Shown: positions 27,053 to 47,892 of the stretch, piece by piece
How the letters are laid out: each line of letters begins with the position of its first letter
Numbering within the stretch: position 1 is the stretch's first letter
Assembly (NCBI GenBank): GCA_038061695.1
Contig: JBBTYT010000005.1
Location: 1-61,076, forward strand
Length of the DNA stretch: 61,076 nucleotides
DNA from: Patescibacteria group bacterium
GTDB taxonomy: Bacteria > Patescibacteriota > Minisyncoccia > GWC2-36-17 > M10-OD1-4
Direction: 5' to 3'
Notes under the pieces: generated by a model
Databases searched by the model: none
Told to the model about the DNA's origin: nothing
The model's input: the letters and a program-made list of their open reading frames with translations, nothing else
Position numbers and translations under genes: made by a program

Positions 27053-28330
27053 TCAGTAGCTTCTATACTTAGCAAGGGGATTATTTGCGCCCCTAACCTC
27101 AAAGTGAAGATGGCATCCTGTTGATTTGCCTGATCCTTGCATTCTAAATAGCTTTCCATTAACATATTCAAACCCTCCACCCATACTCCCTATCTCTTGA
27201 CCCTTCTTGACAAATTGTCCAGATTCCACAGAAATATCCTTCATATGAGCATACAATGTTGCAGTTCCATTAGGATGTGTAATTTTTACATGATTTCCAT
27301 AACCGCCAAAAACAGTTGCTCCGAACTTTGATCTTGATTTTGTCGTTAATGCTGTTGCAACAAGACCGTCAGCAGCGGAATAAATAGGAGAGCCACACTT
27401 ATTTGCCACATCAACTCCATTATAACCATGGACTCCTTGAGACCTAACTCCTTTAGCTGGAAATATAAAATACGAATCTGCATTTACAGTAGATTTGGAA
27501 TAAGTTACTACCGTCTTTGTTTTTGCCACTGCATATACTATAGGCATCTCACCATCAGGAATAATTAAAATTTCACCTAATTGAAGCGCGCCATCTAGAG
27601 ACAAACTATTAAATGTTATAATATCCTCTTTTTTCACTTTATATTTTTTAGCTATCGCAACAATTGTGTCTCCTTTTTTTACATCATGTTGAATTCCTGT
27701 TACTGGTAAAATTTTTAATTCTTGACCCTCTTTAATATAACTTAAAGAATTTAAATTATTTGCCCATAAAACAGTATTTATTGTTACGCCAAACTCTGCG
27801 GCAATCTTTGAAATAGTATCGCCTTGTTCAACTTTATAGATTATGGTTTCTGATCTATCATTCTCAGAAGCAACCGTTGTTAAAGATGCTAATCCAGGAA
27901 TCAAAGAATCATCTCCAGTTGTTGAAATATCAGTATAATCTAAATCTCCCTGATCGTTAGGTCCGCCTTTTGCTTCTTGTATATCAGCATCAACTTCATT
28001 ATAACTCAATGAATCTTTATTATGAAAATTTTGTATATTAATCACACTCGTTCGTATAGCTGTATTCGGAAGATTTAAGGATTTTACATCTAAGTAATCT
28101 AAGGAGAAGATGGAATCAAAAGCAGAAACTCTGCCAGTGCTCTCCATTAGATTAAGAAGAAAGACTAAAATAAAAAGAGAAAAGACAAATGAATAGGTAA
28201 AGTTAACTCTAAAAAATCTATATATGCTTATTATATACCTTAAAGCCTTTCTTAACGAAAATAAAAATAAACTGCCAGTCCAAACTGTGAAGTTTTTCGC
28301 TCCAATACTATCTATTTTACCCTTTAACAA
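27053..28330 (-). CDS. LysM-repeat M23-family peptidoglycan endopeptidase
   Basis: Three LysM units (YKVEQGDTISKIAAEFGV, HDVKKGDTIVAIAKKYKV, and others). The C-terminal M23 region has GVDVA...HVKITHPNG..TLYAHM...TGCHLHFEVR. TTG start, so the start is uncertain. Confidence 0.9.
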   Translation of the reverse strand: MLKGKIDSIGAKNFTVWTGSLFLFSLRKALRYIISIYRFFRVNFTYSFVFSLFILVFLLNLMESTGRVSAFDSIFSLDYLDVKSLNLPNTAIRTSVINIQNFHNKDSLSYNEVDADIQEAKGGPNDQGDLDYTDISTTGDDSLIPGLASLTTVASENDRSETIIYKVEQGDTISKIAAEFGVTINTVLWANNLNSLSYIKEGQELKILPVTGIQHDVKKGDTIVAIAKKYKVKKEDIITFNSLSLDGALQLGEILIIPDGEMPIVYAVAKTKTVVTYSKSTVNADSYFIFPAKGVRSQGVHGYNGVDVANKCGSPIYSAADGLVATALTTKSRSKFGATVFGGYGNHVKITHPNGTATLYAHMKDISVESGQFVKKGQEIGSMGGGFEYVNGKLFRMQGSGKSTGCHLHFEVRGANNPLAKYRSY

Positions 28331-30495: not shown

Positions 30496-31527
30496 ATGTA
30501 CAAACCAAATTTTGAAATAACTCCTAAAATATTAGACCTGATATCCAAGATATCTTCCGCTAGAGAGACGATTTTTTCCGCTCAATTAATCCCTCAATGG
30601 GAAGTTTCTTTGCGTCGTGATGCTATTCTTAATAACGCTCACGCTTCAACAAATATTGAGGGAAACACCCTTTCTAAAAATGAGGTTACAGAACTCTCTT
30701 TGGGAAGAGATGTTTTAAAAACAAAAAAGGAAAAACAGGAAGTTTTAAACTACTTGAGCGCTCTTTCTAATTTGGAAAAATTAACTAAAAATAAAAATAT
30801 CACAAAAAAAAATATCTTAAAAGCCCACAAATGGATAGTAAAAGAAACTTTAGAAAATAAAGAATGGGAGGGCGCCTGCAGAAATATTCAAGTATACATC
30901 GGCAACACAAAGACCGGTATCATCTCTTTTGTTCCGCCAAAACCGGAAGAGATAGAAGAACAATTAGATTCTTTTCTAAGCTGGCTTAACTCGGATCACA
31001 AAATACATCCCATACTTGAGGCCGGCATAACGCACTATGAGATTGCGCGTATTCATCCTTTCGCAGATGGCAATGGAAGATTAGCAAGATTTATTGCCAC
31101 ATGGATATTAGTAAACAGAGGGTTTGATATTAAAAGATTCTTTGCATTAGATGATTATTATAATAGTGATAGAAGAAACTATTATGAAGCTTTAAAAACA
31201 GTAGATAGAGAGACAATAAATATAACAAAATGGCTTGAATATTTTATAGATGGAGTTGCTGTCTCATCTGAAGCTACGAAGAAAAAAGTTCTAATGCTTT
31301 CTGGCGGAAAGAAAAAATCCGGCACCAAACAAATAACTCTCGCAGAAAGAGAGATAAAAATAATAGAATATATAAACCGCCATAGCCAAATAACAAATAG
31401 CGAGACACAAAGAATATTAAATGTAAAAAGACAAGTCGCAACAAAAGAACTTGCCAAGCTTGTGAAAAAAAATGTTATTAGAAAAATCGGCACATACAAA
31501 GATGCAAAATATATTTTAAAAGATTAA
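30496..31527 (+). CDS. Fic-family protein (class II, N-terminal inhibitory helix) with C-terminal winged-helix domain
   Basis: Canonical Fic motif HPFADGNGRLAR. The inhibitory-helix motif S-x-x-x-E-G is seen as STNIEG. C-terminal HTH: ITNSETQRILNVKRQVATKELAKLVKKNVI. Confidence 0.9.
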   Translation: MYKPNFEITPKILDLISKISSARETIFSAQLIPQWEVSLRRDAILNNAHASTNIEGNTLSKNEVTELSLGRDVLKTKKEKQEVLNYLSALSNLEKLTKNKNITKKNILKAHKWIVKETLENKEWEGACRNIQVYIGNTKTGIISFVPPKPEEIEEQLDSFLSWLNSDHKIHPILEAGITHYEIARIHPFADGNGRLARFIATWILVNRGFDIKRFFALDDYYNSDRRNYYEALKTVDRETINITKWLEYFIDGVAVSSEATKKKVLMLSGGKKKSGTKQITLAEREIKIIEYINRHSQITNSETQRILNVKRQVATKELAKLVKKNVIRKIGTYKDAKYILKD

Positions 31528-32443: not shown

Positions 32444-32923
32444 ATGGAAAATTTTGAAGAAAATTATACACAAAGATTGAATCAAGCAAGAGCCTCAGAG
32501 CGACTACAAGCAAATGCAGAATTATCTGATAATCTTGAAGACGAGGAAGATGAGGAAGATGATATGACCTTAGAATTAGAAAACCCGCCAAAACATCCAT
32601 CTTTTCCTTTTATTATAATGCTTTGCGCTGTTTTAAAAGATATGTCAGATGTTCTAACTGCCGGATTTTTAGGAATTATAACATCAGCTTTTTTTGGTCT
32701 TCTTATATTCTTTTGGATAATGCTTCAAGATACAGGCATTATAAGAAAGTTACTCATAAAAAAAGTCGTTTTGAGAATTGTATTGGCATTATTGATAGGA
32801 TTAATTCCTATAGCTGGAGCTATAATACCGGAAGCGACTATATTGGTTTTATTAATATATTTAAATCATTATAAGATAGTTAATAATTTTTATGCGACTT
32901 TGGAAAAAATTGAGATAGTTTAA
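32444..32923 (+). CDS. hypothetical small membrane protein (acidic N-terminus, about 3 TM helices)
   Basis: DNLEDEEDEEDD tract followed by hydrophobic helices. No family recognised. Confidence 0.55.
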   Translation: MENFEENYTQRLNQARASERLQANAELSDNLEDEEDEEDDMTLELENPPKHPSFPFIIMLCAVLKDMSDVLTAGFLGIITSAFFGLLIFFWIMLQDTGIIRKLLIKKVVLRIVLALLIGLIPIAGAIIPEATILVLLIYLNHYKIVNNFYATLEKIEIV

Positions 32924-32954: not shown

Positions 32955-32984
32955 TTCTTATTTTACCTTTCTTTATGGTATAAT
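32955..32984 (+). promoter_or_regulatory. extended -10 promoter for the T4SS-like operon
   Basis: TGGTATAAT (TGn + TATAAT at 32979-32984) with a weak -35 TTCTTA 18 nt upstream. A DnaA-box-like CTATCCACA (32937-32945) lies just upstream. Confidence 0.5.
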
Positions 32985-33016: not shown

Positions 33017-33988
33017 ATGATTGATGAAAAAAGAAAGTTTTCTATTCAGAAAGGGAATGTGATAATTCCTGTTGTTTTGATTTTAGGCGTATTCATTGGC
33101 GGAGTTGTTGTCTTGCAAACAAAAGGAATCGGGGCGAGCCTAATATCAGAGGGTAAGAAGATATTCATACCGGTAGCAGATGAACCAGATGCAGACCCTG
33201 ATAGCGATGGACTTAAAAATTGGGAGGAAACAACTTACAAAACAGATCCGAGAAAATTTGATACGGATGATGACGGCTACTCTGATGGCGAAGAAGTTTT
33301 ATCCGGATATAACCCGATAAAGCCAGCTCCAAATGATGCGCTAGAAGGAACAGATACAACAACGCCAAGACCAACTCCAAAAAATTTAACAGAATATCTA
33401 TCTCAACTAATAATAGATAAAGTGGCAACAGGAGAATTTAAGCCTGTTTCTGATGCAGATACAGCTCCTGACTCCGCACTAATTAACAACGAAGAGATCC
33501 TAAGCGAAGCTCTTGTCCATATCGCGGCAACAGCAGAGAGAGAGTTCGTTTTATCAAGAATAAATGACTCAGAAATTAAAATATCTACAAAGGATACAAA
33601 AAAAGAAGAAGTTTTTGCATATATCGCTTCTATCTCTGCTGTTTTGGAAGATGAAAAAGTCATTACAGATATAGGACTTTCTGAAGCCGAAATAATAGAA
33701 AAAACCGTAGCTACAAAAGATAAAAAAAATATAGAAAAATTAATAGATTTTTATCAGGTTGGCATAGATAAGATTAGAAAGATTACAACACCTAAAGATT
33801 TTGCGGATATTCATAAAGAACAACTGGCAATATTTGAGCTGACAAAGAAGATATTAATTGCGATAAAAAACTTTGAAGAAGATCCTGCGACAGCGGCGGC
33901 GGCGGCAGAGAAATATCCTGATATGAAAAACATATTGGAAAATTTTACAAAAAAACTTGTTGAAAGAATGGGAAGGTATAACGAATAG
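33017..33988 (+). CDS. membrane-anchored protein with thrombospondin type-3-like Ca-binding repeats
   Basis: N-terminal TM (VIIPVVLILGVFIGGVVVL). DPDSDGLKNWEE and DTDDDGYSDGEE are DxDxDG-type repeats at about 33190-33320. Confidence 0.6.
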   Translation: MIDEKRKFSIQKGNVIIPVVLILGVFIGGVVVLQTKGIGASLISEGKKIFIPVADEPDADPDSDGLKNWEETTYKTDPRKFDTDDDGYSDGEEVLSGYNPIKPAPNDALEGTDTTTPRPTPKNLTEYLSQLIIDKVATGEFKPVSDADTAPDSALINNEEILSEALVHIAATAEREFVLSRINDSEIKISTKDTKKEEVFAYIASISAVLEDEKVITDIGLSEAEIIEKTVATKDKKNIEKLIDFYQVGIDKIRKITTPKDFADIHKEQLAIFELTKKILIAIKNFEEDPATAAAAAEKYPDMKNILENFTKKLVERMGRYNE

Positions 33989-34020
33989 GATTTATACGCT
34001 TAAACGCAATTAAAAACTTA

Positions 34021-37000
34021 ATGGGAACATTTGAGAGAATATTTAAGCCAATATCAACGCTCTTAGTTGCGATACTCATCGTCAACTCTTTTCTCTTTGC
34101 TATACTCTACTCTCCGAATCCAGCACGAGCGATATTAGGAGCAGGTGATATCGTTTCCGATCCTATCCAGACCGCATTAACAACGGTTTGGAAAGCTATA
34201 AAAACAGCTTTTGATGCCGCAAAAGCCGCCGCAGACAAAATTTGGCAAGCGTCAGTTACTTTTTTTAATACTTGGGAAAAAAGCGAAAATATAATGGCGC
34301 AAGTCTCCTATGCGCTTCTTTATGCAACAATAGAGCTAATGCTGGCAAAGATGACTACTGATATTGTAAATTGGATTAACGGCGGAGCAAAAGGATCACC
34401 GAAAGTAGCTCTGGATTTTGAAGAAATCTTTGAAGATTCGCTTGATCAAGCGGCTGGCTCTGTCATAGGTGATATTTTAGGTTTGCCAAATGGCGAGCTT
34501 TGCGACCCTAATTTCTTAAAGGTTAATCTCCCTATCTCTCTAGATACCATCCAAGCACCAACATTTCAAGAGAAGTTAAAATGTTCCTTTTCTGAAATTG
34601 GAACAAATATAAAAGATTTTGAAAAAGATTTCTCTAAAGGCGGTTGGATAGGTTGGATTAGATATGGCAAGGGCGCAAACAACCAAATTGGGGCTATGAT
34701 GATAGCAAAAGATGAGCTAGCTAAGAGAGCGGAGAAGGCTGAAAAGGCGGCAGAGCTAAAAATAACTACAGGAGACGGATTTTTACCTCAAGAAGATTGT
34801 GTAGTTACGAGAGATATAAATAAAGAGATAGAAGCTTCATTTGCGTCCTCCGGAGATGGAGATATAGTTGGTGGAATAGCAGAATTTGGAGGAAGATCTC
34901 TTATTGGCAAAAAACTTAAAAATATATTAAGCGCATATGGATATTCCAACGAAGATGATTTTAAATCTTTCTGGAATAGCTCCGGCGGAGCATTTACTTG
35001 CAAAATTAAAACTCCTGCAAAAATTATAGCTGATATAACATCTCAAACTATAACAGCTCCGTTAAAAAAATTAAATGATCAGATGCAAGCGGCGGCTAGC
35101 GAGTTAGGCTCAAAAGCACCTGCAATTCTACGGCCTTACCTCAACGCTATCTCCACCGCCGCCATCAATCTTATCATTAAAAAAGAGCAAGGCATTATCT
35201 CAGGAGTTATACGCCAAAATAAACCAAGAACTAACAAAAGACAAAATACCGATGCTTTCAGAGATTCCTCCAATACTCTCTTTGCTAGCGAGAGCTTATC
35301 AAGCTCAGCAACAGATTTACGCTCCCTTCTTATGAGAACTACTCTGGATTTTTCTCTCTTTGCAGGAGTGCTTAAAGAAGTAGTAGAAAATAAAAATATT
35401 TTATTTGAATCTCCGATTCTAGTATCAGAGCTTATTCATAGCGGGTATATTTGGTCGTCTGGATTTGGATATGGAGCAAAAGCTTCCGTTATTTGGCTTC
35501 CAAATCCTCCATACTCTGACAATCCTACTTCCGTAAACGACCCAAGTATGGATGAATTAATCTCGACTAGAACAAAAGAGGTAATAGACAAAAAAACAGC
35601 TATAGGCTATCCTACACTTCCAATTGCCGGAACTATTAATCTGGCTGGTAAAACTTGCGGAGCATTTACTCAAGAAATTACTCCTACAGTAACGACAACA
35701 TCTAACGAAACCATATCTCCACGTATAGGATATGTGAGTCTTGTAAGTATTACAAATGCTGATGGTAGTATAAGTCCTGCTGGTAGCATAATTTATAATA
35801 ACACTGTATCCGGCAACACTGGTTTTTTTAATGGTCCTCTTGGTCAAACAAGAATAATAGCTTTCAATGACAAAGGATTTATAAATCCAGATAGCCTCCC
35901 TATTCCTACCCCTATTCCTGATAGATTCGTCAGACAAATAGTTAGTCCAAGTAATCCTAATGACCTATTATCAAATACGGTAACATTCATAGATGTTGGG
36001 GGTTTTAATAGTATAGTTGTTGGAACGCCTCTTAATACTACTGATCCTAATTATGATACTACTATTTTATACACAAGCGAACTCTTTTCAGTTGGTTCAA
36101 CAGACCTTAGAGTAAGCACTTCCGGAGCAGGAGATATATATTATATAACAGGCAATAAAAATCCAGGCAACTTAATCTCCAGTGGCAATATTACTTATAC
36201 CTCAGTAGGCATAACTAGCGACTATAACTACCGTTACGCTGTCCAGCTTGGAAATGGAACTAGTGGTTCTGGACAATTTGTAAGACTACCAGAGTATAGC
36301 TCGCTAAGCTTAGCGATAACACCTGCCTATACTGATCCTGATACTTTCGCCTACATTCCTGCTATATATACAGACCCAGCCACAGAGGTTCTATTTAAAG
36401 ATATTTTCGTTGGTGGTACTATTAATTATAGTAATACTGCAAACGGACAAGCTTCATATATAAACTGTAGGAATGATAATGGGTGGTATATAAATCTTTC
36501 TACTTGTCGTTACTGGGATGGAGGTACTTCCAATGAAGTACCCGCTGAAGTAATACCACCGCTCTATACTGGTGGTAATTGCACATGGATAGACTCAGAT
36601 TTTGCAGAGCTGTCTCAAGTTCAATGCGAAAAAAATATACCTATACTAGGGTATTCTTCTCAACCGGACTTAAACCTGATCGGCATTCCAGCATACAGAA
36701 GCGACGAAAATTATAATTTAAAATATTTCTCGCCATCATTCCCTGGAGCAACTACATCAATAGAAAATAAAAGATTGATTGTCAGATATGACGACATCCT
36801 TATTGATCCATCTCAACCTGCTAGCGATACTAACCCGCCTACAACATTAAAAGATGGCGAGGATAAAGTAACTATTAACAATAGTAATCCTTTTAAGATG
36901 ACTCTGCTTGATTTCTTTCCTGAGGTAGATGAGCTACAAAATGAATTTATGGTAAAGATAAGAGTGCTTCTGGGATATACTCAAAGAACCAAAAAGAAAA

Positions 37001-39090
37001 CACATTTCTCCTCTTTAGCCGATCAAATAGGAGCTATACCAGATGACGGAAATATATCTGTGTTAGAATCTTCACCAGGAATAAATTTGCCGTATATCTC
37101 TGTCAGCGATGTTCTGACAAAATATAATAATCTTTCTAAGCTATATCAAGAACTCTTCCTTGGCGTATCAAATGAAGATTCTCTTGAAGGACTTGATCCT
37201 CTATTTAACACCTTAAATGCAACGGAAATAAATATAAAACGCGCCTTGATAGGTCAAAGATGTCCGACGATACCTCCAACTCTCCTTTCGTCACAAAACC
37301 TCATTGATGGTTGCGGTAGATTTGGCGCAACAACGATAAATCCAACCACTACCGGCGAATATAATATGGCAAAGAAATTCATCTTTGAGAGAGAAAGAGT
37401 AGAAGCTCCTAATAGCGGATTTGCGACAAACCCATTTAATGGCACAAATAGTAATGTTATTGCCGGCGTTTTAAACTTGGATGAAATGACTCAACAATTA
37501 GCGACTTTAGCTCCTGATAAAAACATCATAAAGCTCATCAGATTAAGACAGATATTGGAACAACTTCAAATCAATTCTCAACCAATAACATTTTACGGTG
37601 AAACAACAAGCAAAGATAAGGTTATTACGCCAACAATATTAAGCGGAGTTGACACTATCCAACTATCTTTAAGAAACTATCCTGAGATTGAAAACTTTTT
37701 GAATGATATAACAACAGATAATAAACCTATAACTGATCTGATAACAGCTTATGCATTCGCCGTCACAAATACAAAAGAAGCATATCCTGTAATAAGCGAT
37801 GATCTTGATAATATTCTTCCTGATATAACAACTCAGATCCAAGACCAATTAAAAGAAGTCTTCCTAAAAAGGGTTGAGCTTGAGCTTGAACAAGCAAAAA
37901 AAGAAGCTCAAATAAGATTACTTGACTTTATATACTTTGCTGAAGATCTTTCTCCTGCTGTTCAAGTTGAAGTACCGAAAGGCTTCATAAATAGTTCGGA
38001 TGCGATCATTATGGGATTGGATGCTCTTGCAAGTAGGATAATACGAGTTGGCACATCTACATTTAATACTCAGATGGGAATGACACTATCAACGCCATTA
38101 GCGCCTGGAGTAGAAAATAACTGTTTATCTCTATCTGGAGATAAAATATTAGCTATAGCACCATCTACTAACTGCTCGGAAAATCCTGAATTTAAATTAC
38201 GCGGGATGAAAGTTTTACCATGGAATCTTTTTTCAGCTGACCCAGATATGACAATAATCCAAACTAATACTCCTACTTCTCAAGAGATGGAAAAAGCATT
38301 AAAAGCAGTCGGTATAAGAAAAGCATTGATGGCTGGCATAAGAGAAAAAATGAAACATTTTGGAAGAGCTATTGGAGTAAATGTGGACTCGGTAGAATTT
38401 GAAGCTTTTCTATCTCAATATGTCCTTCCTTTGACAAAGAAAGGCGACATACTCCCCGATGGCACCACTGATCTAACAGGCGGGAAAATACCTATTAATG
38501 ATTGGGATGGTAGAATCGCAAGAGGATTAGCGGATGTGGATATTATGTTTACAGGAATATATAGCACAAAGATCAATCATCTAAATAATCCCGGAATAAT
38601 ACTCTCAAATGGAGAGTCTATATATACTGACATACAAACAAAAATGACAGATATCTCAAATAATTTCTCCCTATTACAAGTGGAATTTGAAAAAATAAAG
38701 GAGATTTACACATCTTCTGGAAGCTCATCCATAGCATCATCCAAAGCCTCTCTAGAAGAAATGATTAAACTCTTAAAAACTATGGATGACGCTTTCTCAG
38801 AAGCCCTTGCTTGTACGGATACTGCCCTAAGAATTAATAGCAATGCTAACCAACTTCAACTTGCTCTAGCAACTGGTGGATTAAGTATTCTTACAGACGG
38901 ATTGGGGATAGCTTTTGGCGGTCCTGTAGGGCTAGCTACGGGTATGATAATCGGCGCTTGGCTTACAAGCAGAGCAAAGAAAAAAGCGAAGAAAAAAGCA
39001 AGACAGATAGCGGATACCTGTGCCTCTAAAGCAACGGACTTCAATAATGCCGCTATTGAACTTGTAGATAATTTTATTTGCGGAAAATAA
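34021..39090 (+). CDS. giant (1689 aa) surface protein anchored by N- and C-terminal TM segments
   Basis: Uninterrupted 5 kb ORF. N-terminal TM ISTLLVAILIVNSFLFAILY. C-terminal TM GLATGMIIGAWL followed by the basic stretch SRAKKKAKKKARQ. The central Thr/Ser/Asn/Gly/Pro-rich region suggests beta structure. No family recognised. Confidence 0.85.
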   Translation: MGTFERIFKPISTLLVAILIVNSFLFAILYSPNPARAILGAGDIVSDPIQTALTTVWKAIKTAFDAAKAAADKIWQASVTFFNTWEKSENIMAQVSYALLYATIELMLAKMTTDIVNWINGGAKGSPKVALDFEEIFEDSLDQAAGSVIGDILGLPNGELCDPNFLKVNLPISLDTIQAPTFQEKLKCSFSEIGTNIKDFEKDFSKGGWIGWIRYGKGANNQIGAMMIAKDELAKRAEKAEKAAELKITTGDGFLPQEDCVVTRDINKEIEASFASSGDGDIVGGIAEFGGRSLIGKKLKNILSAYGYSNEDDFKSFWNSSGGAFTCKIKTPAKIIADITSQTITAPLKKLNDQMQAAASELGSKAPAILRPYLNAISTAAINLIIKKEQGIISGVIRQNKPRTNKRQNTDAFRDSSNTLFASESLSSSATDLRSLLMRTTLDFSLFAGVLKEVVENKNILFESPILVSELIHSGYIWSSGFGYGAKASVIWLPNPPYSDNPTSVNDPSMDELISTRTKEVIDKKTAIGYPTLPIAGTINLAGKTCGAFTQEITPTVTTTSNETISPRIGYVSLVSITNADGSISPAGSIIYNNTVSGNTGFFNGPLGQTRIIAFNDKGFINPDSLPIPTPIPDRFVRQIVSPSNPNDLLSNTVTFIDVGGFNSIVVGTPLNTTDPNYDTTILYTSELFSVGSTDLRVSTSGAGDIYYITGNKNPGNLISSGNITYTSVGITSDYNYRYAVQLGNGTSGSGQFVRLPEYSSLSLAITPAYTDPDTFAYIPAIYTDPATEVLFKDIFVGGTINYSNTANGQASYINCRNDNGWYINLSTCRYWDGGTSNEVPAEVIPPLYTGGNCTWIDSDFAELSQVQCEKNIPILGYSSQPDLNLIGIPAYRSDENYNLKYFSPSFPGATTSIENKRLIVRYDDILIDPSQPASDTNPPTTLKDGEDKVTINNSNPFKMTLLDFFPEVDELQNEFMVKIRVLLGYTQRTKKKTHFSSLADQIGAIPDDGNISVLESSPGINLPYISVSDVLTKYNNLSKLYQELFLGVSNEDSLEGLDPLFNTLNATEINIKRALIGQRCPTIPPTLLSSQNLIDGCGRFGATTINPTTTGEYNMAKKFIFERERVEAPNSGFATNPFNGTNSNVIAGVLNLDEMTQQLATLAPDKNIIKLIRLRQILEQLQINSQPITFYGETTSKDKVITPTILSGVDTIQLSLRNYPEIENFLNDITTDNKPITDLITAYAFAVTNTKEAYPVISDDLDNILPDITTQIQDQLKEVFLKRVELELEQAKKEAQIRLLDFIYFAEDLSPAVQVEVPKGFINSSDAIIMGLDALASRIIRVGTSTFNTQMGMTLSTPLAPGVENNCLSLSGDKILAIAPSTNCSENPEFKLRGMKVLPWNLFSADPDMTIIQTNTPTSQEMEKALKAVGIRKALMAGIREKMKHFGRAIGVNVDSVEFEAFLSQYVLPLTKKGDILPDGTTDLTGGKIPINDWDGRIARGLADVDIMFTGIYSTKINHLNNPGIILSNGESIYTDIQTKMTDISNNFSLLQVEFEKIKEIYTSSGSSSIASSKASLEEMIKLLKTMDDAFSEALACTDTALRINSNANQLQLALATGGLSILTDGLGIAFGGPVGLATGMIIGAWLTSRAKKKAKKKARQIADTCASKATDFNNAAIELVDNFICGK

Positions 39091-39094
39091 AAAA

Positions 39095-41104
39095 ATGAAT
39101 TTCAAAAAGAAACAATTTATTCTCATCTTATCACTGCTTTTAATAGTATTTTTTGGTTTTTTTCTTACACCAAATCCAGCATATGCTGGGCTGGGAGATA
39201 ATGTTATGACTGGATTCCTAAGATTAATAAACTGGGTACTTAGAATGATAATGGATCTTGAATCTCTTATTTTAGCCCTTATCGGATCATTCGCTGACTC
39301 TGTAATGCAACCGGAACCAATAACAAAGTCTTTTATAGTAGAAAACGGCTGGAATATAGCAAGAGATTTTGCAAATATGTTCTTTATCTTAATACTTCTT
39401 GCTATTGCGTTATCTTTTATCTTATTTCCTCGTTTTCAAATAAAGCAGGCTTTACCAAGACTTCTAGCCATTGCTCTCTTGATAAATTTCTCATTACCTA
39501 TAGCCGGTCTCTTCATAGATTTTGCAAATATTTTTTCCGCTACCTTTTTTAAATTAGCCTCTGCAGGAACTGCAGGCATATCTGAAACAGTAGCTGGGGG
39601 CTTAGGCATTACCAATATATATACTTTCAATGCCAGTGGACAATTTGGAGGCGATACATTGGATAGTGAACAAAAACTTTTCAAAATTCTTTTACTTGGA
39701 ATATTTTTTATGGGTATTTTAATATTCATATTCTTAGCACTTGGTATGATGTTTTTAATTAGAAATATGTATCTATATATATTATTAATATTACTTCCTC
39801 TCGCTCTTGTGGCTTCTATCCTGCCTCAAGGAAAATCTTACTTTTCTAGCTGGACAGGCAAATTTTTTCAATGGACATTTTTTGCTCCAGTAGCGCTCTT
39901 TTTCATATATCTTGCAATAGCTTCCTTTCAGAGCATCATTGGTTCTAAAGCTCAAGATTTTGCGGCTAAAGCTACCATGGAAGATGGTATTCCTCTATTA
40001 GCACAAACTTATAATTATATAGCAATTCTTGGACTTCTAATCGGTTCGCTTGTAGCCGCAAACTCCTTAGGCATAAGAGCTGCTGGAGCATCTTTAACTA
40101 TGCTTAAAAAAGGCGGGAAGATTATGAGAAATGGAATTGGCAGAGGAGTAAGAGGTGTCGGCAGATATGCCAAGAGAGAGGCAGTATATAACGCTGAGAG
40201 ATTATCAGCTTCTAAGGGAATTGAGAATGTCTCTTCATTTCTATCAGGAATACCTTTAGTAGGAGCTTACGCCGGCAGAACAGGACTAAGAGCCGCAACA
40301 AGATTCAAATTGTCCGCTGAAAGTAGAGGTAAAATATCTGATAAGGAGAAAAAGCTTTTAGATAGTATGTCAGATAAACAACAGCTGAAATATTATGAGG
40401 ATATGAAAAGAACAAATTCATCAAGAGCCACAACTCTTGCTGGCATACTCGCTGAAAAAGGTACTCTCACAAAATTTGATCCTAAAAAATCAGTTGACGA
40501 AAATAATGTTGCAACGAAGAAACTCAAAGATGATGCTTATGCGGATGCTGTTAAAGTTGGAAATAAAAATGCTCAGAAGGCTATAGAAAGATCAGCACCT
40601 CAAATATTTGAGGACAATTTAAATAAAAGAAAATTTGTTGTACAAAGGCAAGGCGAAGAAGCAAAAGATAGTGAAACTGGTCTGACAAAAAATGAAATGA
40701 CTCAAGCATATTATAGAGGATTTCGGCCTAGTGATGTGGAAAAAATGGATAAAGGAATGCTTAGTAGCGAGGAAGGTAAAAAATTCTTAAAGAATCTCCA
40801 AATATATGGAAATATGTCCGGTGAACATTTAAAATCAGCTTTAAGAACTGGTTCTCATGACTTCTTGAAAGCATTTGAGGATTCTATAAAAAGTATGAGT
40901 GCCCCAGAAATACGACAGATATCAGAAAACAATAAAAACTTTGTAAACTTCGTAGGTAGCACAGCCGCTAGAGGACTCTCTGGCGCAAAAGAGCTGTCTG
41001 AAAAGATAAAATTATCACAGGGTATTATGCAAACGATATCGACAGTAAGACAGGATACCGCGCAAGCGCTAAAAAATCCTAGAGCCACCGCAAAAACACC
41101 TTAA
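39095..41104 (+). CDS. VirB6/TrbL-like polytopic membrane protein with a long hydrophilic C-terminal extension
   Basis: Signal/TM, at least 6 hydrophobic helices over residues about 80-330, then about 330 hydrophilic residues. It starts 4 nt after the giant gene. Assignment rests on topology, context and gestalt. Confidence 0.6.
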   Translation: MNFKKKQFILILSLLLIVFFGFFLTPNPAYAGLGDNVMTGFLRLINWVLRMIMDLESLILALIGSFADSVMQPEPITKSFIVENGWNIARDFANMFFILILLAIALSFILFPRFQIKQALPRLLAIALLINFSLPIAGLFIDFANIFSATFFKLASAGTAGISETVAGGLGITNIYTFNASGQFGGDTLDSEQKLFKILLLGIFFMGILIFIFLALGMMFLIRNMYLYILLILLPLALVASILPQGKSYFSSWTGKFFQWTFFAPVALFFIYLAIASFQSIIGSKAQDFAAKATMEDGIPLLAQTYNYIAILGLLIGSLVAANSLGIRAAGASLTMLKKGGKIMRNGIGRGVRGVGRYAKREAVYNAERLSASKGIENVSSFLSGIPLVGAYAGRTGLRAATRFKLSAESRGKISDKEKKLLDSMSDKQQLKYYEDMKRTNSSRATTLAGILAEKGTLTKFDPKKSVDENNVATKKLKDDAYADAVKVGNKNAQKAIERSAPQIFEDNLNKRKFVVQRQGEEAKDSETGLTKNEMTQAYYRGFRPSDVEKMDKGMLSSEEGKKFLKNLQIYGNMSGEHLKSALRTGSHDFLKAFEDSIKSMSAPEIRQISENNKNFVNFVGSTAARGLSGAKELSEKIKLSQGIMQTISTVRQDTAQALKNPRATAKTP

Positions 41105-41148
41105 AAAAGCAGTTTAGAGATTTAATATAATAAAATTATATTTAAAAA

Positions 41149-42033
41149 ATGCAAGATATACCAAAAGAACAATTAATAAAGAGATTTCAAATATTATCCG
41201 ACTCTTTGCAGGATATTATTTTTTCCGAAACAACCGCAGATTCAATCAGAAAGGCATCTGTGCTTGGTGGTGTTGAAGAAAATCAAGGCTTGCTTGCTGA
41301 ACTAACAGGTAGAGTCTTATTAGGATATTTAAATCCAATTCATTTTGCTGAAGAATTGGTAAACGAGCTTGGGATATCAGAAGAAACGGCTCAACAAATA
41401 ACAACCATTCTTGATGCAGAGATATTCTCTCTTGTAAACACCGATTTAAGAAAGCTATATCCGCCAACTATAAAAACTCCGACAGCGATGTCAAAAGGAT
41501 TTTCTCATGAGGAGGCAAAAAAATATGAGAAGAAAGATGAAAAGAGAGTAAGTGAGTTTGAAAAAAGATTTTTAGGCAAACGGGATGAAGCATCTGAAAA
41601 AATATTTTCACAAAAAATGGGAAGCAAAGTGCTGGATACTGAAGAAGAAACGAAAAGCTATACTACACCTATTTCGGAAAAAGAGAAAATTATTGAACAA
41701 GCTATCGTTATTCCAAAAGCTCCGGAGATCCCAAAAAAAATAGAAACTATAAGAAATATAAACTCAAATAAAAAACCTGTTGAAGAAAGAAAACCAGAAC
41801 CGATATTAGCAGAAAGAGAGATAAAAACAACAGAACCGCAATTAAGAGCGCAAAAAGAAACGCCTCATATAAAACCTGTGGTTCCTTTGCCGACATTTTT
41901 ACAATCCCAGTTTCAGCCAAGAAAGAAAATGGCGAGCGCATACAATGAAGATCTACCTAAAGAAGATACAAAAAATGAGACAAAACCAACACCAAAGATA
42001 TCTGGAAATGTGATAGATCTTCGTGACCTTTAA
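41149..42033 (+). CDS. hypothetical soluble protein (about 100-aa N-terminal domain + Lys/Glu/Pro-rich tail)
   Basis: No TM helices and a low-complexity C-terminal half. It lies inside the operon. Confidence 0.55.
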   Translation: MQDIPKEQLIKRFQILSDSLQDIIFSETTADSIRKASVLGGVEENQGLLAELTGRVLLGYLNPIHFAEELVNELGISEETAQQITTILDAEIFSLVNTDLRKLYPPTIKTPTAMSKGFSHEEAKKYEKKDEKRVSEFEKRFLGKRDEASEKIFSQKMGSKVLDTEEETKSYTTPISEKEKIIEQAIVIPKAPEIPKKIETIRNINSNKKPVEERKPEPILAEREIKTTEPQLRAQKETPHIKPVVPLPTFLQSQFQPRKKMASAYNEDLPKEDTKNETKPTPKISGNVIDLRDL

Positions 42034-42114
42034 TCAGCTTATAACTCTTAGATTTATAATTCATAAAAATGTTTTCCTAAAAAACTAAAAGCCACTAAAG
42101 ATAAAAGCTAGCCT

Positions 42115-42471
42115 ATGAAACAATTTCAAGTTCCACAATTTATAGATATAGAAGATAAGATTCTTGGATTTGTAACTATGCGTCAGTTTTTTACTATGCT
42201 CATTCCGCTAACCGTAGCTATTGTATTATATTTCATATTGGATTTTTTTCTTATGATAATTATTTCTGTGCCAACTACGATTATCTCAGCAATATTTGCT
42301 TTTTATAGACCTAATGGAATGAAGTTTTCAAAATTTATAAGATCATTTTTAAGCTATACATTTAAACCAAGATTATATGTTTGGAAAAGAGAAGAAAAAT
42401 CAATGTCATCTCAAGAAATGGAAATAACGGAATCCGAGAGAATAAAGAAGTTAGATGGATTGAAAAAATAA
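42115..42471 (+). CDS. PrgI-family / VirB3-like small membrane protein
   Basis: N-terminus VPQFIDIEDKILGFVTMRQFF followed by two TM helices. This is the typical PrgI pattern, and the gene sits just upstream of VirB4. Confidence 0.7.
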   Translation: MKQFQVPQFIDIEDKILGFVTMRQFFTMLIPLTVAIVLYFILDFFLMIIISVPTTIISAIFAFYRPNGMKFSKFIRSFLSYTFKPRLYVWKREEKSMSSQEMEITESERIKKLDGLKK

Positions 42472-42516
42472 AAAAGGAATTTTTGAATTTAACACTTTTA
42501 ATTTTTAATTTGAAAG

Positions 42517-43155
42517 ATGGCAAAATTAAACGCGCAAGCAACACAACAGCTGGTAGATATAGATTCTATAAGAGAAAATGTGGTCATATTGAAAGGCGGG
42601 GCATTACGCTCTATCTTGCTGTGTTCATCTGTAAACTTGGCGTTAAAATCTCAAGATGAACAGGATGCTTTAATATATCAATATCAAAATTTTTTAAACG
42701 GATTGGATTTTTCAATAGAATTTGTTGTACATTCAAGAAAGCTTGATATCTCAGAATATATAACCAATGTAAAAGAAAATTTAGAAAGTCAAAAAAATGA
42801 ACTTCTAAGAATCCAGACGGAGGAGTATATAGAATTCATAGAAAACTTCGTCTCTATGCAAAATATTATGGCAAAATCATTTTATGCTATAATACCATTT
42901 TCACTGACAGAAGATTCAAAACAAGGATTTTTCAGTAAGATGTTATCACCAAAAACAACATCATTCAAAAAAATGTCTGATGACGAATTTATCAAGTACA
43001 AAAACCAACTCTGGCAAAGAGTGGAAAATGTAATATCAGGACTAAGAACTGTCGGCGTAATATCTGAACCACTGAACGACTCTGAATTAAAAGAATTATT
43101 TTTTAATATTTATAACCCAGGCGAAACAGGAAAAGAGATCTTAAACAAATCTTAA
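42517..43155 (+). CDS. VirB4 N-terminal-domain-like protein (no ATPase domain)
   Basis: VDIDSIRENVVILKGGALRSILLCSSVNLALKSQDEQDALIYQYQNFLNGLDFSIEFVVHSRKLD resembles the N-terminal region of Gram-positive VirB4/TraE-type proteins. No Walker motifs. Confidence 0.45.
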   Translation: MAKLNAQATQQLVDIDSIRENVVILKGGALRSILLCSSVNLALKSQDEQDALIYQYQNFLNGLDFSIEFVVHSRKLDISEYITNVKENLESQKNELLRIQTEEYIEFIENFVSMQNIMAKSFYAIIPFSLTEDSKQGFFSKMLSPKTTSFKKMSDDEFIKYKNQLWQRVENVISGLRTVGVISEPLNDSELKELFFNIYNPGETGKEILNKS

Positions 43156-43161
43156 ATTATT

Positions 43162-44952
43162 ATGTCATCACAAAAATACCAAGAAAATATCAATATACCT
43201 CAAATATCTGATCCTGCCGGATTTAAAGATATCGTTGCGCCATCAGCCATCCAGATAGAAAGCAGGTATATTCAACTTGGTGATAAATTTTTACGAACTC
43301 TATTTTTATACTCTTATCCGAGATTTTTAAATACAAATTGGTTTGCTCCCGTGATTAATCTAGATAGATTTTTTGACATCTCCATACACTTTCATCCTGT
43401 AGATACTGCCATAATAATGAAAAAACTCAATAGAAAAGTTACTTCTGTTGAGGCGCAACTTAATGAGAGATCAGAGAAGGGACTTATAAGAGATCCCATA
43501 CTTGAAACAGCTCTGCAAGATTTGGAGGGGCTAAGAAATTCCTTGCTTCAAGCTACCCAAAAACTTTTCAGAGTTGGTGTCTATATAACCATAATAGAAG
43601 ATACCCTTGATGACCTCAATAAAGCGGAGAGTGAAATCCGTGGAATCTTAGATGCCAGAATGATCTTAACAAAAAACGCGAACTTCCAGCAGGATATTGG
43701 ATTTATGTCCACTCTTCCGCTAGGCAGAGATATACTGGACATTCACTCAAACCTAAATACAGGACCGGCATCAACTATTTTTCCGTTTGTATCCGCTGAT
43801 CTTACATCAAATAAAGGCATCTTATATGGAATAAATAGACACAACAATGGTCTTATTCTATTTGATAGATTCTCTCTTGAAAATGCTAACTCTGTCATCT
43901 TTGCAAAGTCCGGATCAGGAAAAAGCTATACTGCAAAGCTTGAGATATTAAGATCTTTGATGATGGGAACAGAAGTTATTATTATAGATCCTGAAAATGA
44001 ATATAAATATCTTACAGAAACTGTTGGTGGCTCTTTTTTCAAAGTCTCACTAAACTCTTCAAGCCATATCAATCCGTTTGATCTGCCAAAACCGATTGAA
44101 GGAGAATCTCAAGCTGATGTCTTAAGATCAAATATTATAAATCTTGTTGGTATGATGCGTTTAATGCTAGGTCAAATGTCTCCGGAAGAAGACTCTATAG
44201 TAGATAGAGCTCTTGCTGAAACTTATGCATCAAGAGACATAACTCCGGATGTAGATTTCTCAGATACAATACCGCCGACACTTTCTGATTTTCAATCTAT
44301 ATTGGAAAATATGGATGGTGGTTCATCGCTAGCAAAGAGGCTTGAAAAATATACCGAGGGTTCTTATGCCGGATTTTTAAATAATCAAACAAATATAGAT
44401 ATGCAAAATAAGCTCGTTGTATTTTCTATTAGAGATATGGAAACTGAGCTTAGACCGATTGCTATGTATCTTATTATAAGATATGTATGGAATATCATCA
44501 GGGCAAAATTAAAAAAGAGGATACTCCTTGTTGATGAGGCTTGGGTTATGATGCAACATGAAGATGCGGCATCATTTCTATACGGCATCGCAAAAAGATG
44601 TAGAAAATATTATTTAGGACTTACAACGATTACTCAAGATGTTAATGATTTCTTGAGCTCAAAATACGGAAAAGCAATATTAACAAATTCATCATTACAG
44701 CTTTTACTCAAACAATCTCCGGCTACCATAGGAATGGTTAAGGAGGCTTTCAATCTTTCTGAAGAAGAAAAATACTTGCTTCTTGAATGTGGTGTTGGTG
44801 AGGGCATATTCTTTGCTGGACTCAAACATGCCGCCATTAAAGTTATTGCATCATATACCGAAGATCAGATAATAACATCCAATCCAGAACAACTACTTGA
44901 AAGAGAGAAAGAAAGGGCTGACCTTGAGAGAGCAGGAGATAGCGTGGTATAA
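43162..44952 (+). CDS. virB4: VirB4/TraC-family type IV secretion ATPase
   Basis: Walker A KSGSGKSYT (about 43903-43929), Walker B RILLVDEAW (about 44518-44545), and the N-terminal domain IQLGDKFLRTLFLYSYPRFLNTNWF. Confidence 0.9.
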   Translation: MSSQKYQENINIPQISDPAGFKDIVAPSAIQIESRYIQLGDKFLRTLFLYSYPRFLNTNWFAPVINLDRFFDISIHFHPVDTAIIMKKLNRKVTSVEAQLNERSEKGLIRDPILETALQDLEGLRNSLLQATQKLFRVGVYITIIEDTLDDLNKAESEIRGILDARMILTKNANFQQDIGFMSTLPLGRDILDIHSNLNTGPASTIFPFVSADLTSNKGILYGINRHNNGLILFDRFSLENANSVIFAKSGSGKSYTAKLEILRSLMMGTEVIIIDPENEYKYLTETVGGSFFKVSLNSSSHINPFDLPKPIEGESQADVLRSNIINLVGMMRLMLGQMSPEEDSIVDRALAETYASRDITPDVDFSDTIPPTLSDFQSILENMDGGSSLAKRLEKYTEGSYAGFLNNQTNIDMQNKLVVFSIRDMETELRPIAMYLIIRYVWNIIRAKLKKRILLVDEAWVMMQHEDAASFLYGIAKRCRKYYLGLTTITQDVNDFLSSKYGKAILTNSSLQLLLKQSPATIGMVKEAFNLSEEEKYLLLECGVGEGIFFAGLKHAAIKVIASYTEDQIITSNPEQLLEREKERADLERAGDSVV

Positions 44953-45017
44953 TAGATGTGACTTACAAACTTAATAAAGCTTATCCTGTTTGAGTGTGTA
45001 AATTCTAATAAAAAAGA

Positions 45018-46067
45018 ATGGGTTACAAATTTAAAATTATAAATATAAAATCTTTAAGCTCTTTATCCTTAATAGCTCTTTTTCTTTTTTCACCAATTTT
45101 ATCTAACGCCCAACAAGCTTATGATTATGATAAAGAAATTCAAGATCAAATATCAAGTGCAGAAGATGAATTCTCTGCTCCTTCTGTTGAATTAAATACA
45201 TCATCAAGCGGCAGAATTGGTCAAACCGCCAATATCTCGGCTACTTTAAATAATATAAATCCAAATACGACTGAATTTTTATGGTATTTGGACGATGTAT
45301 CAGATCAAAAACAATCAGGAAAGGCAAAGAGCGAGTTTTCATTTACAACTTCAAAAGAAAATCATGTCGTCAGATTGACTATTTTGGAGAATAACAAAAA
45401 AGTGGCTGAGAATGCGGTATTAATAAGCTCCTATAATATCTCTCTGATCTGGAAAGCTGAAACTTATGTTCCACCTGAATATGAAGGAAAGGCTATGCCA
45501 ACAAGAGGAAGTAAAGTTACTGTTACAGCAATACCGGACATTAAAGATGTTGACTCTAAAGAACTTCTGTACACATGGTATCTTAATTCTGAATCACAGG
45601 TGAGAGGTGTATTAGGAGAAGATGCATTTTCATTTATAGTATCAAAGAGTGTTGATTTTATACCAGTATTTGTAGAAGTTTCAAATCTCTCAGGGTCAAT
45701 AACAGTAAGCCAAGCTATATCAATACCTGTAGTAAGACCTTCTGTCTTGCTATATCATAAAACATCTGAAAAAAGATCTGAGCTCGCCTTAAATAATATA
45801 GATATCTCTCCCGGAAAATCAATATCAGTGATAGCAAGGCCATTTAATTTTCAAGCAAACAATCTGACAGATTTTGATTATATTTGGGAGTTTATAGGTA
45901 ATAAGGCATTCGGAGATAATATAGATCCGAGCCTATTAACATTACAAATATCTGAAAATTCTGCTTTGGGAAGTAAAAATTTAACCTTACTAGCAACTAG
46001 CCGTAAATCATATAAAGAACGAGCCGTCTCAAACCTGACTGTTAATATAATAAAACAGCAAGAATAA
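45018..46067 (+). CDS. secreted protein with three roughly 100-aa beta-sandwich-like repeats
   Basis: Signal peptide ending SNAQQ. A motif recurs at about 100-aa spacing: TEFLWYLDD, ELLYTWYLNSE, DFDYIWEFIGN. Confidence 0.6.
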   Translation: MGYKFKIINIKSLSSLSLIALFLFSPILSNAQQAYDYDKEIQDQISSAEDEFSAPSVELNTSSSGRIGQTANISATLNNINPNTTEFLWYLDDVSDQKQSGKAKSEFSFTTSKENHVVRLTILENNKKVAENAVLISSYNISLIWKAETYVPPEYEGKAMPTRGSKVTVTAIPDIKDVDSKELLYTWYLNSESQVRGVLGEDAFSFIVSKSVDFIPVFVEVSNLSGSITVSQAISIPVVRPSVLLYHKTSEKRSELALNNIDISPGKSISVIARPFNFQANNLTDFDYIWEFIGNKAFGDNIDPSLLTLQISENSALGSKNLTLLATSRKSYKERAVSNLTVNIIKQQE

Positions 46068-46702
46068 TGAAATACAAAAAGATCATCTTAATATTATTTT
46101 TTACCGTAGTGCTTGTCGTTATTTCAGATACGGCTAGCGCTGTTATATTGGAATCAGGGATCCCTGGAAAAGATGGATATGCTCCTGGCGTCGAAGCTCC
46201 TGACATCAAAGAATATCTGGAGTTAATTTATAAATTTATGATAGGCCTTATCGGTATTGCCGGTTTCGCCTCACTAGTTTGGTATGGAATAGTTTGGATA
46301 TACTCAGGAATATCAGAGAAAAAATCAGAAGCACTGGAGGGCATAAAAAATACTCTCATTGGCATAGCTCTTGCCCTATCTTCTTATGCAATATTATATA
46401 CAATAAACCCTAATCTTCTAACACTCACAATACCAACACCTCCAAAAAATATAATTACTACACAGCCTATGACCCACCCTCAAATGGTTTATAGTACTAG
46501 AGAATTTGGAAATTGGTATTATGACTACTACTCTACTCTAAATGGAACAATACGGAACAGCTTAGGATATACTGGACCTACAGCCGAACTTAATTGCCAA
46601 AAAACTGTATTAGCATTTCAAAATACATTATATGTCAACTCAACATTGCCTGACAAACTAATAATAGTCAATCCATGTTATGAATATTCTGGGTACAGAT
46701 AA
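46067..46702 (+). CDS. VirB2/TrbC-like T4SS pilin with an extra C-terminal domain
   Basis: Signal peptide (...SDTASA), then two hydrophobic helices separated by a short polar loop (MIGLIGIAGFASLVWYGIVWIYSG...KSEALEGIKNTLIGIALALSSYAILY). The start overlaps the upstream stop as TAATG. No type IV prepilin G/FTLxE motif. Confidence 0.6.
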   Translation: MKYKKIILILFFTVVLVVISDTASAVILESGIPGKDGYAPGVEAPDIKEYLELIYKFMIGLIGIAGFASLVWYGIVWIYSGISEKKSEALEGIKNTLIGIALALSSYAILYTINPNLLTLTIPTPPKNIITTQPMTHPQMVYSTREFGNWYYDYYSTLNGTIRNSLGYTGPTAELNCQKTVLAFQNTLYVNSTLPDKLIIVNPCYEYSGYR

Positions 46703-46761
46703 AAATGTTGCATCGTCGGCAATCCTATCATCTATAATTACTTGCCAAATAATAAAAAAAT

Positions 46762-47892
46762 ATGACAAAAAAAAGTAAAATTTCATTAGTTATCATAATT
46801 ATAATCCTTATCGTTGGGTCTGTTTTTGCTTACTACCTCCTTGTAGTCGGTAAAAAACCAACTATCATAAAGGAGAAGGATACTCCTAATAAAGAAATCA
46901 TAATATCAACAACAGAAAAATCAAGCAAATTAGTTCAAATAACTGATGAAAATGTTGTATCACCGGCAATAAATGAGGAAAAAAAGAGAATAAGATATAT
47001 AACAAAAAATGATGGTGTTTTGTATCAATCCGACTTGAAAGGGGAGAATAAAATAAAAATACCATTCGTAAGCTTAGGCGGTATTATAAAAATTATCTGG
47101 ACGGAAGATCAAGAAAAATTCATCAATATCTATTCAGATTCTTTTGGTGTCAAAAGCTTCTTTTATGATTTAGCGTCAAAACAAGCCGTGCCTTTAAATA
47201 AAAATATAACTTGGCTTGATTATTCAAAAAATACAGATAAAATATTTTATCACTACTACGACTCCTCGCAAAGCATAAATTCAATTGCTACTTCAAATTC
47301 AGATGGTTCTCTTTCAAAAAGTATAATCAATACAAGATTACAGGATGTTAGACTTCAATGGATAACAGATAAAAAAATTGCAATATCCACAGCGCCTTCA
47401 GGACTTGCGCAAAATATACTTTATACCTTAAATCCTGAATCTCCAAAATTTATTAAAATATTAAGTGGCATTTACGGATTAACACATAAGTGGTCTTCCG
47501 ACGGCTCCAAGTTCGCCTTCTCTCAAACAGATAAAGATGGCGCTAGTCTAACATTAAATATATCAAACGAAAGTGGACTTGAGATATCAAACACTAGAAT
47601 AATAACATTGCCTGAAAAATGCGTATTTATGAAAGATAATATATCTCTTTTATGCGCAGAAATGTTAAGTGTGCCGGAAAATGCAATAATGCCTGATGAT
47701 TATTACAAAAAAACATTCATCGCAAATAATAGACTATGGAAATTAAATACCGAAACAAATAAAAAAGATATCATCTACGATTTTAATGAAGACATTAATT
47801 TTGATCTTGACAATCTCACCCTCACAAACGACGAAAAATACTTATATTTTACAAATAGAGCAAATGGATTTCTTTATAGATTAGAACTCTAG
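46762..47892 (+). CDS. membrane-anchored TolB-like beta-propeller protein
   Basis: N-terminal TM, then repeated PD40-like segments (NDGVLYQSDLKGEN, SNSDGSLSKSI, SSDGSKFAFSQTDKDG). Confidence 0.5.
   Translation: MTKKSKISLVIIIIILIVGSVFAYYLLVVGKKPTIIKEKDTPNKEIIISTTEKSSKLVQITDENVVSPAINEEKKRIRYITKNDGVLYQSDLKGENKIKIPFVSLGGIIKIIWTEDQEKFINIYSDSFGVKSFFYDLASKQAVPLNKNITWLDYSKNTDKIFYHYYDSSQSINSIATSNSDGSLSKSIINTRLQDVRLQWITDKKIAISTAPSGLAQNILYTLNPESPKFIKILSGIYGLTHKWSSDGSKFAFSQTDKDGASLTLNISNESGLEISNTRIITLPEKCVFMKDNISLLCAEMLSVPENAIMPDDYYKKTFIANNRLWKLNTETNKKDIIYDFNEDINFDLDNLTLTNDEKYLYFTNRANGFLYRLEL

Follow-up and report, generated by a model that had tools for sequence, protein, structure and literature searches.

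Is the gene cluster around virB4 at positions 33017-47892 of a 61,076-nucleotide stretch from a Patescibacteria group bacterium (assembly GCA_038061695.1, contig JBBTYT010000005.1; the whole stretch is referred to below as the window) part of a conjugative element, or does it encode a secretion machine with another task? Profile searches, structure models and gene-order comparisons identify it, with good confidence, as the chromosomal type IV secretion system (T4SS) of the Patescibacteria, carried here by a Parcubacteria/Azambacteria-like groundwater genome and of monoderm ancestry (mating-pair-formation class FATA, MPF-FATA; CD1110/CTn2-like). Ten non-nested open reading frames (ORFs), encoding proteins of 323, 1689, 669, 294, 118, 212, 596, 349, 211 and 376 amino acids, lie on the + strand within 33017-47892 and are called O1 to O10 in gene order. 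The initial annotation had counted eleven co-directional ORFs in this interval; the eleventh gene attributed to the system lies upstream, at 32444-32923. The small gaps between the genes were read in the sequence as described, with 4 nt at the 39090/39095 junction and a TAATG stop/start overlap at 46065-46069. The final gene, O10, converges with a minus-strand Wzy-like gene, which gives the 3′ limit of the cluster.

The identification is carried by O7 (43162-44952, + strand, as are all features of the cluster given below), a VirB4 ATPase of the monoderm, CD1110-like MPF-FATA type. O7 matched Pfam P-loop_TraG (9e-27), the NCBIfam model for the CD1110-family VirB4-like conjugal transfer ATPase (387.5 bits against a cut-off of 325; 1e-115) and PDB entry 4ag5, the VirB4 of the monoderm Thermoanaerobacter (1e-45), and intact Walker A (AKSGSGKS) and Walker B (LLVDEAW) motifs were read in its translation, confirming the ATPase proposed at first sight. 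Its nearest plasmid relatives are conjugative VirB4 proteins of Bacillota and Actinomycetota (29-35% identity), and its matches to CedB (1.2e-6) and CedD (1.7e-7) were marginal. The alignment with the CD1110 model covers positions 186-728 of 752, and the first ~185 positions are absent from O7. The 212-aa protein O6 (42517-43155), whose gene ends 6 nt 5′ of virB4, matched positions 2-147 of the same model (E 2.4e-3), positions 101-273 of VirB4_plasma, the NCBIfam model of the mycoplasma integrative and conjugative element (ICE) VirB4 (E 5.4e-10), and 156 of the 201 positions of TrsD/TraD (E 4.9e-7; 29.8 bits, far under the 200-bit cut-off); a PDB sequence and profile search with O6 gave no match. 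Alignment of the O6 family profile by hhalign placed it on residues 23-199 of the 797-aa VirB4 of the Clostridium botulinum plasmid pCDC3875 (92.6%, E 4.5e-7), on which the O7 match begins near residue 215. Because O6 and O7 tile both the CD1110 model and the pCDC3875 protein, VirB4 is encoded here as two ORFs, a TrsD-like split-off N-terminal domain (O6) and the ATPase (O7). Overlapping paralogy of the two proteins was considered and rejected: when the O6 family was aligned by hhalign with the first 235 residues of O7, the E-value was 0.23.

The partners expected of such an ATPase were found beside it. O5 (42115-42471, 118 aa), a PrgI/VirB3-like protein with two transmembrane segments, scored above the gathering threshold of Pfam PrgI (2.9e-11, 44 bits against 27), and also showed a weak match to the fused VirB4 model of the mycoplasma ICE, at its VirB3-like N-terminus (positions 22-107); PrgI, O6 and O7 tile this VirB3-VirB4 model consecutively, at 22-107, 101-273 and 292-893. 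O3 (39095-41104), an extended VirB6/TrbL-like polytopic channel protein, has at least six hydrophobic segments followed by a C-terminal hydrophilic domain of ~340 aa. Its own match to Pfam TrbL (7.4e-5, 23 bits) fell under the cut-off of 25.9, and TrbL was matched by 7 of 20 syntenic orthologues, the best at 3.8e-8. O9 (46067-46702), a VirB2-like T4SS pilin with an extra C-terminal domain, likewise scored just under the Pfam T4SS_pilin cut-off (1.2e-5, 25.7 bits against 26.6), and sixteen of the twenty syntenic members of its family matched that model (best 2.5e-19). It is built of a signal peptide, a hydrophobic hairpin and a Cys-containing C-terminal domain of ~100 aa, and resembles the mycoplasma ICE pilin-like family weakly (2e-3). 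Pilin-family ORFs at other loci (for example L075, 7551-12530) range from ~140 to >800 aa, with hairpins joined to large extracellular domains. The PrgI-like, VirB6-like and pilin assignments of the initial annotation were thereby upheld, the latter two through the orthologues.

In order to place the cluster among its relatives, the loci of the 80 best species-level VirB4 relatives (L001-L080; the basis of all locus counts given here) were compared. These VirB4 proteins share 59-94% identity with O7 and most are titled as Patescibacteria-group metagenome-assembled genomes (MAGs); the nearest, at 79-94%, come from Parcubacteria/Azambacteria MAGs. Three loci (L001, L002 and L005) have all ten genes in identical order with identical flanks, and L004 has nine of the ten in order, the position of O1 lying past its contig end. 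The order uvrD, ksgA, VirB6, O4, PrgI, TrsD, VirB4, (U159), Ig-protein, pilin, propeller, yidC, dnaA, dnaN is kept at ~60% VirB4 identity, so that the synteny proposed as a check does recur across Parcubacteria species. The O6 family adjoins virB4 in 74/80 loci, the PrgI family is present in 69/80, and the O3 family lies 5′ of virB4 in 33. The remaining relatives bear titles that are generic or probably wrong, but their synteny is the same. Many public MAGs (L016, L017, L027, L028 and others) combine this VirB4 and a Moranbacteria-like synteny with the title 'uncultured Bdellovibrionales' or 'Candidatus Saccharibacteria', probably through mislabelling of third-party assemblies.

The gene content and setting agree with a published class. 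Quinonero-Coronel et al. (2025) reported VirB4 in 2,417 of 3,035 Patescibacteria genomes, nearly all in one clade nested in MPF-FATA, with TrsD, PrgI/VirB3, VirB6 and VirB2-like pilins as partners, and with the Paceibacteria locus close to dnaA, dnaN and ksgA (PMC12102498); a 2025 FEMS review summarises these systems (PMC12857230). The window shares with that clade the TrsD-like gene next to virB4, the PrgI/VirB3, VirB6-like and VirB2-like genes, the chromosomal position near dnaA, dnaN and ksgA, and the lack of a relaxase or coupling protein nearby.

This last point bears directly on conjugation. Outside the operon, window ORFs with a length of 100 aa or more were scanned with Pfam and NCBIfam, and the called genes in the 10 kb past each window end were considered as well, ~81 kb in total. 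Within this span no type IV coupling protein (T4CP; T4SS-DNA_transf, TraG and TrwB-type), relaxase, VirB11 or ICE integrase was found, as the initial annotation had said of the window. VirB11 is normally absent from monoderm T4SSs. The only tyrosine recombinase of the window (10492-11394) is XerC/D-like and 22 kb from the cluster, a search for flanking direct repeats as ICE borders returned only low-identity, AT-rich chance matches, and there is no adjacent tRNA gene. The window belongs to a 162-kb contig of a Hainich groundwater metagenome (ENA ERZ1292636, contig Hain_PNK108_H32_02um_7). The cluster is instead flanked on both sides by housekeeping genes close to the origin: PNPase, a YifB/ComM-like ATPase, an M23-LysM peptidase, UvrD/PcrA, Fic and KsgA upstream, and two Wzy-like genes, a flippase, YidC and then dnaA, dnaN, a class A penicillin-binding protein and RuvC downstream, with dnaA starting ~6 kb 3′ of the cluster and the remaining window genes likewise housekeeping. 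It could be supposed that the cluster is the mating-pair-formation module of an ICE, with the coupling protein, relaxase and integrase encoded in another part of the genome. Its core is homologous to conjugative modules, VirD4-like genes occur in most Patescibacteria genomes, usually far from virB4, and a minority of these genomes carry relaxases, which are otherwise almost absent (PMC12102498). The housekeeping flanks, the missing borders, the lack of mobility genes within ~81 kb, the identical chromosomal position in many species and the rarity of VirB4 transfer between classes (PMC12102498) make such an arrangement very improbable here. The view put forward in the initial annotation, of a chromosomal T4SS of monoderm type that is non-conjugative and belongs to an episymbiotic bacterium with a small genome, is supported by flanks, synteny and the literature (PMC12102498, PMC10633639, PMC12857230).

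A second reading, that the cluster is what is left of an ancient conjugative element, in decay and no longer functional, would account for the missing T4CP, hydrolase and VirB8 and for a VirB4 split into two ORFs. All ORFs and both Walker motifs are intact, however, the genes are tightly spaced, their order is kept across deep divergence, and the adjacency of O6 to O7 in nearly all loci marks the split as ancient and universal. Wang et al. (2023) moreover showed by transposon sequencing (Tn-seq) that epibiotic growth of Southlakia epibionticum ML1 requires the homologous cluster (SEML1_0006-0019), in which an essential pilin array is present and coupling and relaxase proteins are lacking (PMC10633639). 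Decay is accordingly the least credible of the explanations weighed, and scarcely worth entertaining.

The same organism informs a third possibility, that the cluster is a DNA-uptake (competence-type) T4SS like Helicobacter pylori ComB or archaeal Ced, importing host or environmental DNA as a source of nucleotides. The absence of a nearby coupling protein or relaxase and the presence of a VirB2-like pilin fit this idea, YifB/ComM-like and UvrD genes lie at most 8 kb upstream, and the survey of Patescibacteria VirB4 favours, as its hypothesis, an import of DNA or of other macromolecules (PMC12102498). ComB, like the ~81 kb covered here, has no relaxase and no dedicated T4CP, Ced also lacks a relaxase, and both have VirB4-, VirB6- and pilin-like parts; ComB differs, however, in its diderm VirB7-10 components, and no Pfam match to VirB7, VirB9 or VirB10 was seen among the operon proteins. 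Further, O7 fits the conjugative CD1110 model far better than it does CedB or CedD, ComEC, DprA and ComF are not adjacent in the window, and uvrD and ksgA are origin-proximal housekeeping neighbours at many loci. Deletion of comEC in S. epibionticum abolished competence and left viability intact (PMC10633639, PMC12857230); since comEC is thus dispensable and the T4SS essential, the essential role of the system there is not ComEC-coupled DNA uptake. On balance DNA uptake is an unlikely account of this locus, if a less remote one than the other two.

Detailed comparison with individual systems shows what is shared and what is particular. The ML1 cluster (SEML1_0005-0019) has, like the present one, a large orphan protein and an exported Ig-like protein beside virB4. 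It differs in having six pilins in an array against one here, with its C-terminal extension, two VirB6-like genes against one, a PrgI of 300 aa against 118 aa, and lysozyme/peptidase genes 3′ of virB4 and an NTF2/VirB8-like gene, neither of which was found here, whereas the TSP3 protein, the 1689-aa giant and the beta-propeller are extras of the present locus. In pCDC3875, of CD1110/CTn2-type MPF-FATA, the order is VirD4, VirB6, PrgI, x, VirB4, small ORF, SLT hydrolase. Judged by family and gene order, the predicted inner-membrane core (VirB6-like channel, PrgI/VirB3 anchor and VirB4) is collinear with this and other Firmicute conjugation modules. The plasmid differs in encoding VirB4 as one chain, in its upstream VirD4 (CD1115), downstream SLT hydrolase and MOBP relaxase, none of which occurs here, and in having no detectable counterpart of U159 or O4 (see below). 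A separate TrsD-type protein beside VirB4 is also found in the staphylococcal pGO1/pSK41 trs operon (TrsC-TrsD-TrsE), but pGO1, a conjugative plasmid, has a T4CP and a relaxase as well, and its subclass lacks a VirB6 homologue (PMC12102498). The mycoplasma ICE (Mbov_0397 VirB4, Mbov_0395 pilin-like) shares the consecutive PrgI-O6-O7 mapping and the weak pilin match; its VirB4 is a single fused polypeptide on a mobile element, and the scores obtained here lie under the equivalog cut-offs.

In conjugative elements the core is flanked by a coupling protein and a cell-wall hydrolase; here these are missing and are replaced by five predicted extracellular or membrane-anchored proteins, namely the TSP3 protein, the giant, the triple-Ig protein, the beta-propeller and the pilin. 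Pfam and NCBIfam profiles gave no match to a hydrolase (VirB1-like) or NTF2 (VirB8-like) domain among the operon proteins, with structure models covering O8 and O10 only. An M23 peptidase with two LysM domains is encoded 5 kb 5′ of the cluster (27053-28330, minus strand), and could, going by its domains, stand in for the missing cell-wall hydrolase; VirB1-like proteins with M23/LysM domains are recorded in the Patescibacteria survey (PMC12102498).

The surface proteins proved to be largely as first described. O1 (33017-33988) combines an N-terminal membrane anchor (hydrophobic segment 8-40), a Ca-binding TSP3 repeat (TSP3_bac, 9.8e-8, 32 bits, above the cut-off of 25) and an uncharacterised extracellular region, and homologues occupy the equivalent position in 9 loci. 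O8 (45018-46067) was modelled by AlphaFold2 (AF2) with a predicted local distance difference test score (pLDDT) of 86 as a secreted protein in which a signal peptide and one helix precede three Ig-like beta-sandwich domains in tandem. Foldseek related it to Hoc, SiiE, GhpA and tandem Ig/FnIII/BIg strings (E 1e-9 to 1e-6), in agreement with the triple beta-sandwich recognised earlier; its family lies 3′ of virB4 in 42 loci and is enlarged to ~900 aa in Moranbacteria-like loci. O10 (46762-47892), an N-terminally membrane-anchored extracellular beta-propeller (AF2 pLDDT 88.6; helix 3-29, propeller 57-375), was matched by Foldseek to tricorn, oligogalacturonate lyase, WD40 and TolB, and PD40 and other propeller Pfam families were found in its homologues, which bears out the TolB-like propeller of the initial annotation.

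The giant O2 (34021-39090), correctly delimited as a 1689-aa ORF and placed directly 5′ of virB6, remains an orphan. It has an N-terminal signal/transmembrane segment, a central S/T/N/G-rich region, a C-terminal transmembrane segment and a basic tail, and neither sequence nor profile searches matched it in Pfam, NCBIfam or PDB. Only 10 relatives were found among 5.8 billion protein clusters, all in a similar context. Its N-terminal module (60-270) recurs in L007 (E 4e-23), where a 626-aa protein occupies the same position; the giant is a lineage-specific expansion. A Pfam scan of nine O2 homologues gave a lone stray match to DUF4141 in one of them (3e-4), a domain that occurs in TraI-type proteins of Bacteroidota conjugative transposons.

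Two further conserved proteins without a name belong to the locus. U159 (32444-32923), a small polytopic membrane protein with an acidic N-terminus, starts 25 nt 3′ of ksgA. By phmmer it is related to proteins of L036 (E 1.9e-13) and L022 (1.5e-6), and an iterated profile placed its family on the same strand directly 3′ of virB4 in 55/80 loci, at a median distance of 39 nt. The family alignment contains a conserved LKDxLD...P motif, and 232 representatives were retrieved at E<=1e-3 from a library of 1.84 billion proteins; no match was obtained in Pfam, NCBIfam or PDB, and the family carries no annotation. Because it directly follows virB4 in most loci, U159 is counted as the eleventh component of the T4SS, one that in this lineage has moved 5′ of the cluster. 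O4 (41149-42033) is a 294-aa soluble protein whose family sits between virB6 and prgI in 29-31 loci. It has no transmembrane segment and no match in Pfam, NCBIfam or PDB. A conserved helical domain of ~95 aa at its N-terminus is joined by a disordered, P/K/E-rich linker, which varies in length within the family, to a C-terminal peptide that is again conserved. This peptide takes the form G[NK][VI][IV]DL in 11/31 locus orthologues (the window copy ends GNVIDLRDL) and the alternative form NPF[RH]I[RH]PVS in 12/31, and looks like a docking or recognition motif. When the U159, O4, pilin and VirB6 families were aligned by hhalign with the unannotated small ORFs and the VirB6 of pCDC3875, no significant match resulted. 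The claim that more than half of the components have no recognisable family therefore needs adjusting: it stands for the giant, O4, U159 and the C-terminal part of the TSP3 protein, which are still without family or fold, and falls for O6, which is TrsD-like, while O4 and U159 do form conserved families of their own. In addition to the known core, Paceibacteria-type loci carry an accessory layer, conserved and hitherto undescribed, made up of U159 and O4. As a long shot, one might propose that O4 would substitute for the coupling protein as a tethered adaptor, using its C-terminal peptide to dock on the split VirB4 and recruiting substrates, while the giant beside VirB6 would form a VirB5-like stalk or tip in contact with the host.

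Whether the cluster is transcribed as a single operon was assessed from promoter and terminator motifs. The extended -10 motif TGGTATAAT reported at 32976-32984 is present, 33 nt 5′ of the first ORF, as a candidate promoter. A second copy of TGGTATAAT at 44945-44953, a candidate internal promoter, overlaps the virB4 stop codon, 65 nt 5′ of O8, has TTGAGA 18 nt 5′ of it, and is kept in position in L002 and L003 and with one mismatch in L001. The general form TGnTATAAT occurs at 16 sites in the window against 6.9 ± 2.5 in shuffled sequence, a more than 2-fold excess. Several of these sites (among those in the window, 10474-10482) lie only 10-35 nt 5′ of start codons, which may mean that leaders in this genome are short or lacking. 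Neither a generic sigma-70 -35/-10 scan (97 sites against 79 ± 9) nor a terminator scan (7 against 11 ± 3) exceeded chance, and a single operon, as assumed initially, is therefore not supportable from the sequence. The second TGGTATAAT suggests a separate transcript for the three surface-protein genes 3′ of virB4, and since it is conserved in close relatives, two transcription units are as likely as one.

The neighbouring genes gave some further observations. A Fic/DOC-domain protein with a C-terminal winged helix is encoded at 30496-31527, between uvrD and ksgA; in L007, L012 and L019 these two genes are direct neighbours. Some pathogens have Fic proteins as T4SS effectors, but the combination with a winged helix looks more like a regulator or toxin module. 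The interval 25038-26979 encodes a DksA/TraR-type zinc-finger protein (120 aa) and the YifB/ComM-like ATPase of the Mg-chelatase family (505 aa), and ComM is tied to transformation in other bacteria. A T2SSE/PilB-type ATPase gene (L081, 1-1263) lies ~10 kb past the window 3′ end and presumably belongs to a type IV pilus system, on which Patescibacteria also depend.

Returning to the Patescibacteria T4SS as the preferred identity, a working model can be proposed in which a VirB4 hexamer docked on PrgI and VirB6 would power the assembly of a pilin-based filament or conduit across the monoderm envelope, with the surface proteins mediating contact with the host cell. The machine would move macromolecules between epibiont and host, by protein export or import of host material, and not conjugative DNA. 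It would be a vertically inherited housekeeping system, probably expressed from at least two transcription units, starting from about 32976 and about 44945. Several points weigh against this picture. The proposed function is extrapolated from one Saccharibacteria Tn-seq study, and the membership of O7 in the Patescibacteria clade rests on best hits and synteny. A VirD4-like protein could be encoded elsewhere in the genome, as Patescibacteria commonly have such genes a long way from virB4. The operon yielded neither a VirB8-like nor a VirB1-like gene, and the envelope-spanning part of the model is therefore conjectural. The promoter motifs, finally, are consensus matches only.

The Patescibacteria T4SS has been published as a class between 2023 and 2025, and the locus is a re-discovery of a described system; it offers a clean, complete Parcubacteria example and no new principle. 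Added here are the explicit mapping of the split VirB4, the relocated U159, the candidate internal promoter and the O4 family, with the motifs at its C-terminus. No other T4SS has been shown to be essential for the growth of its bearer, and the class is likely to be the interface between ultrasmall epibionts and their hosts, and at that interface U159, O4 and the surface proteins are candidates for substrate recruitment and host contact.

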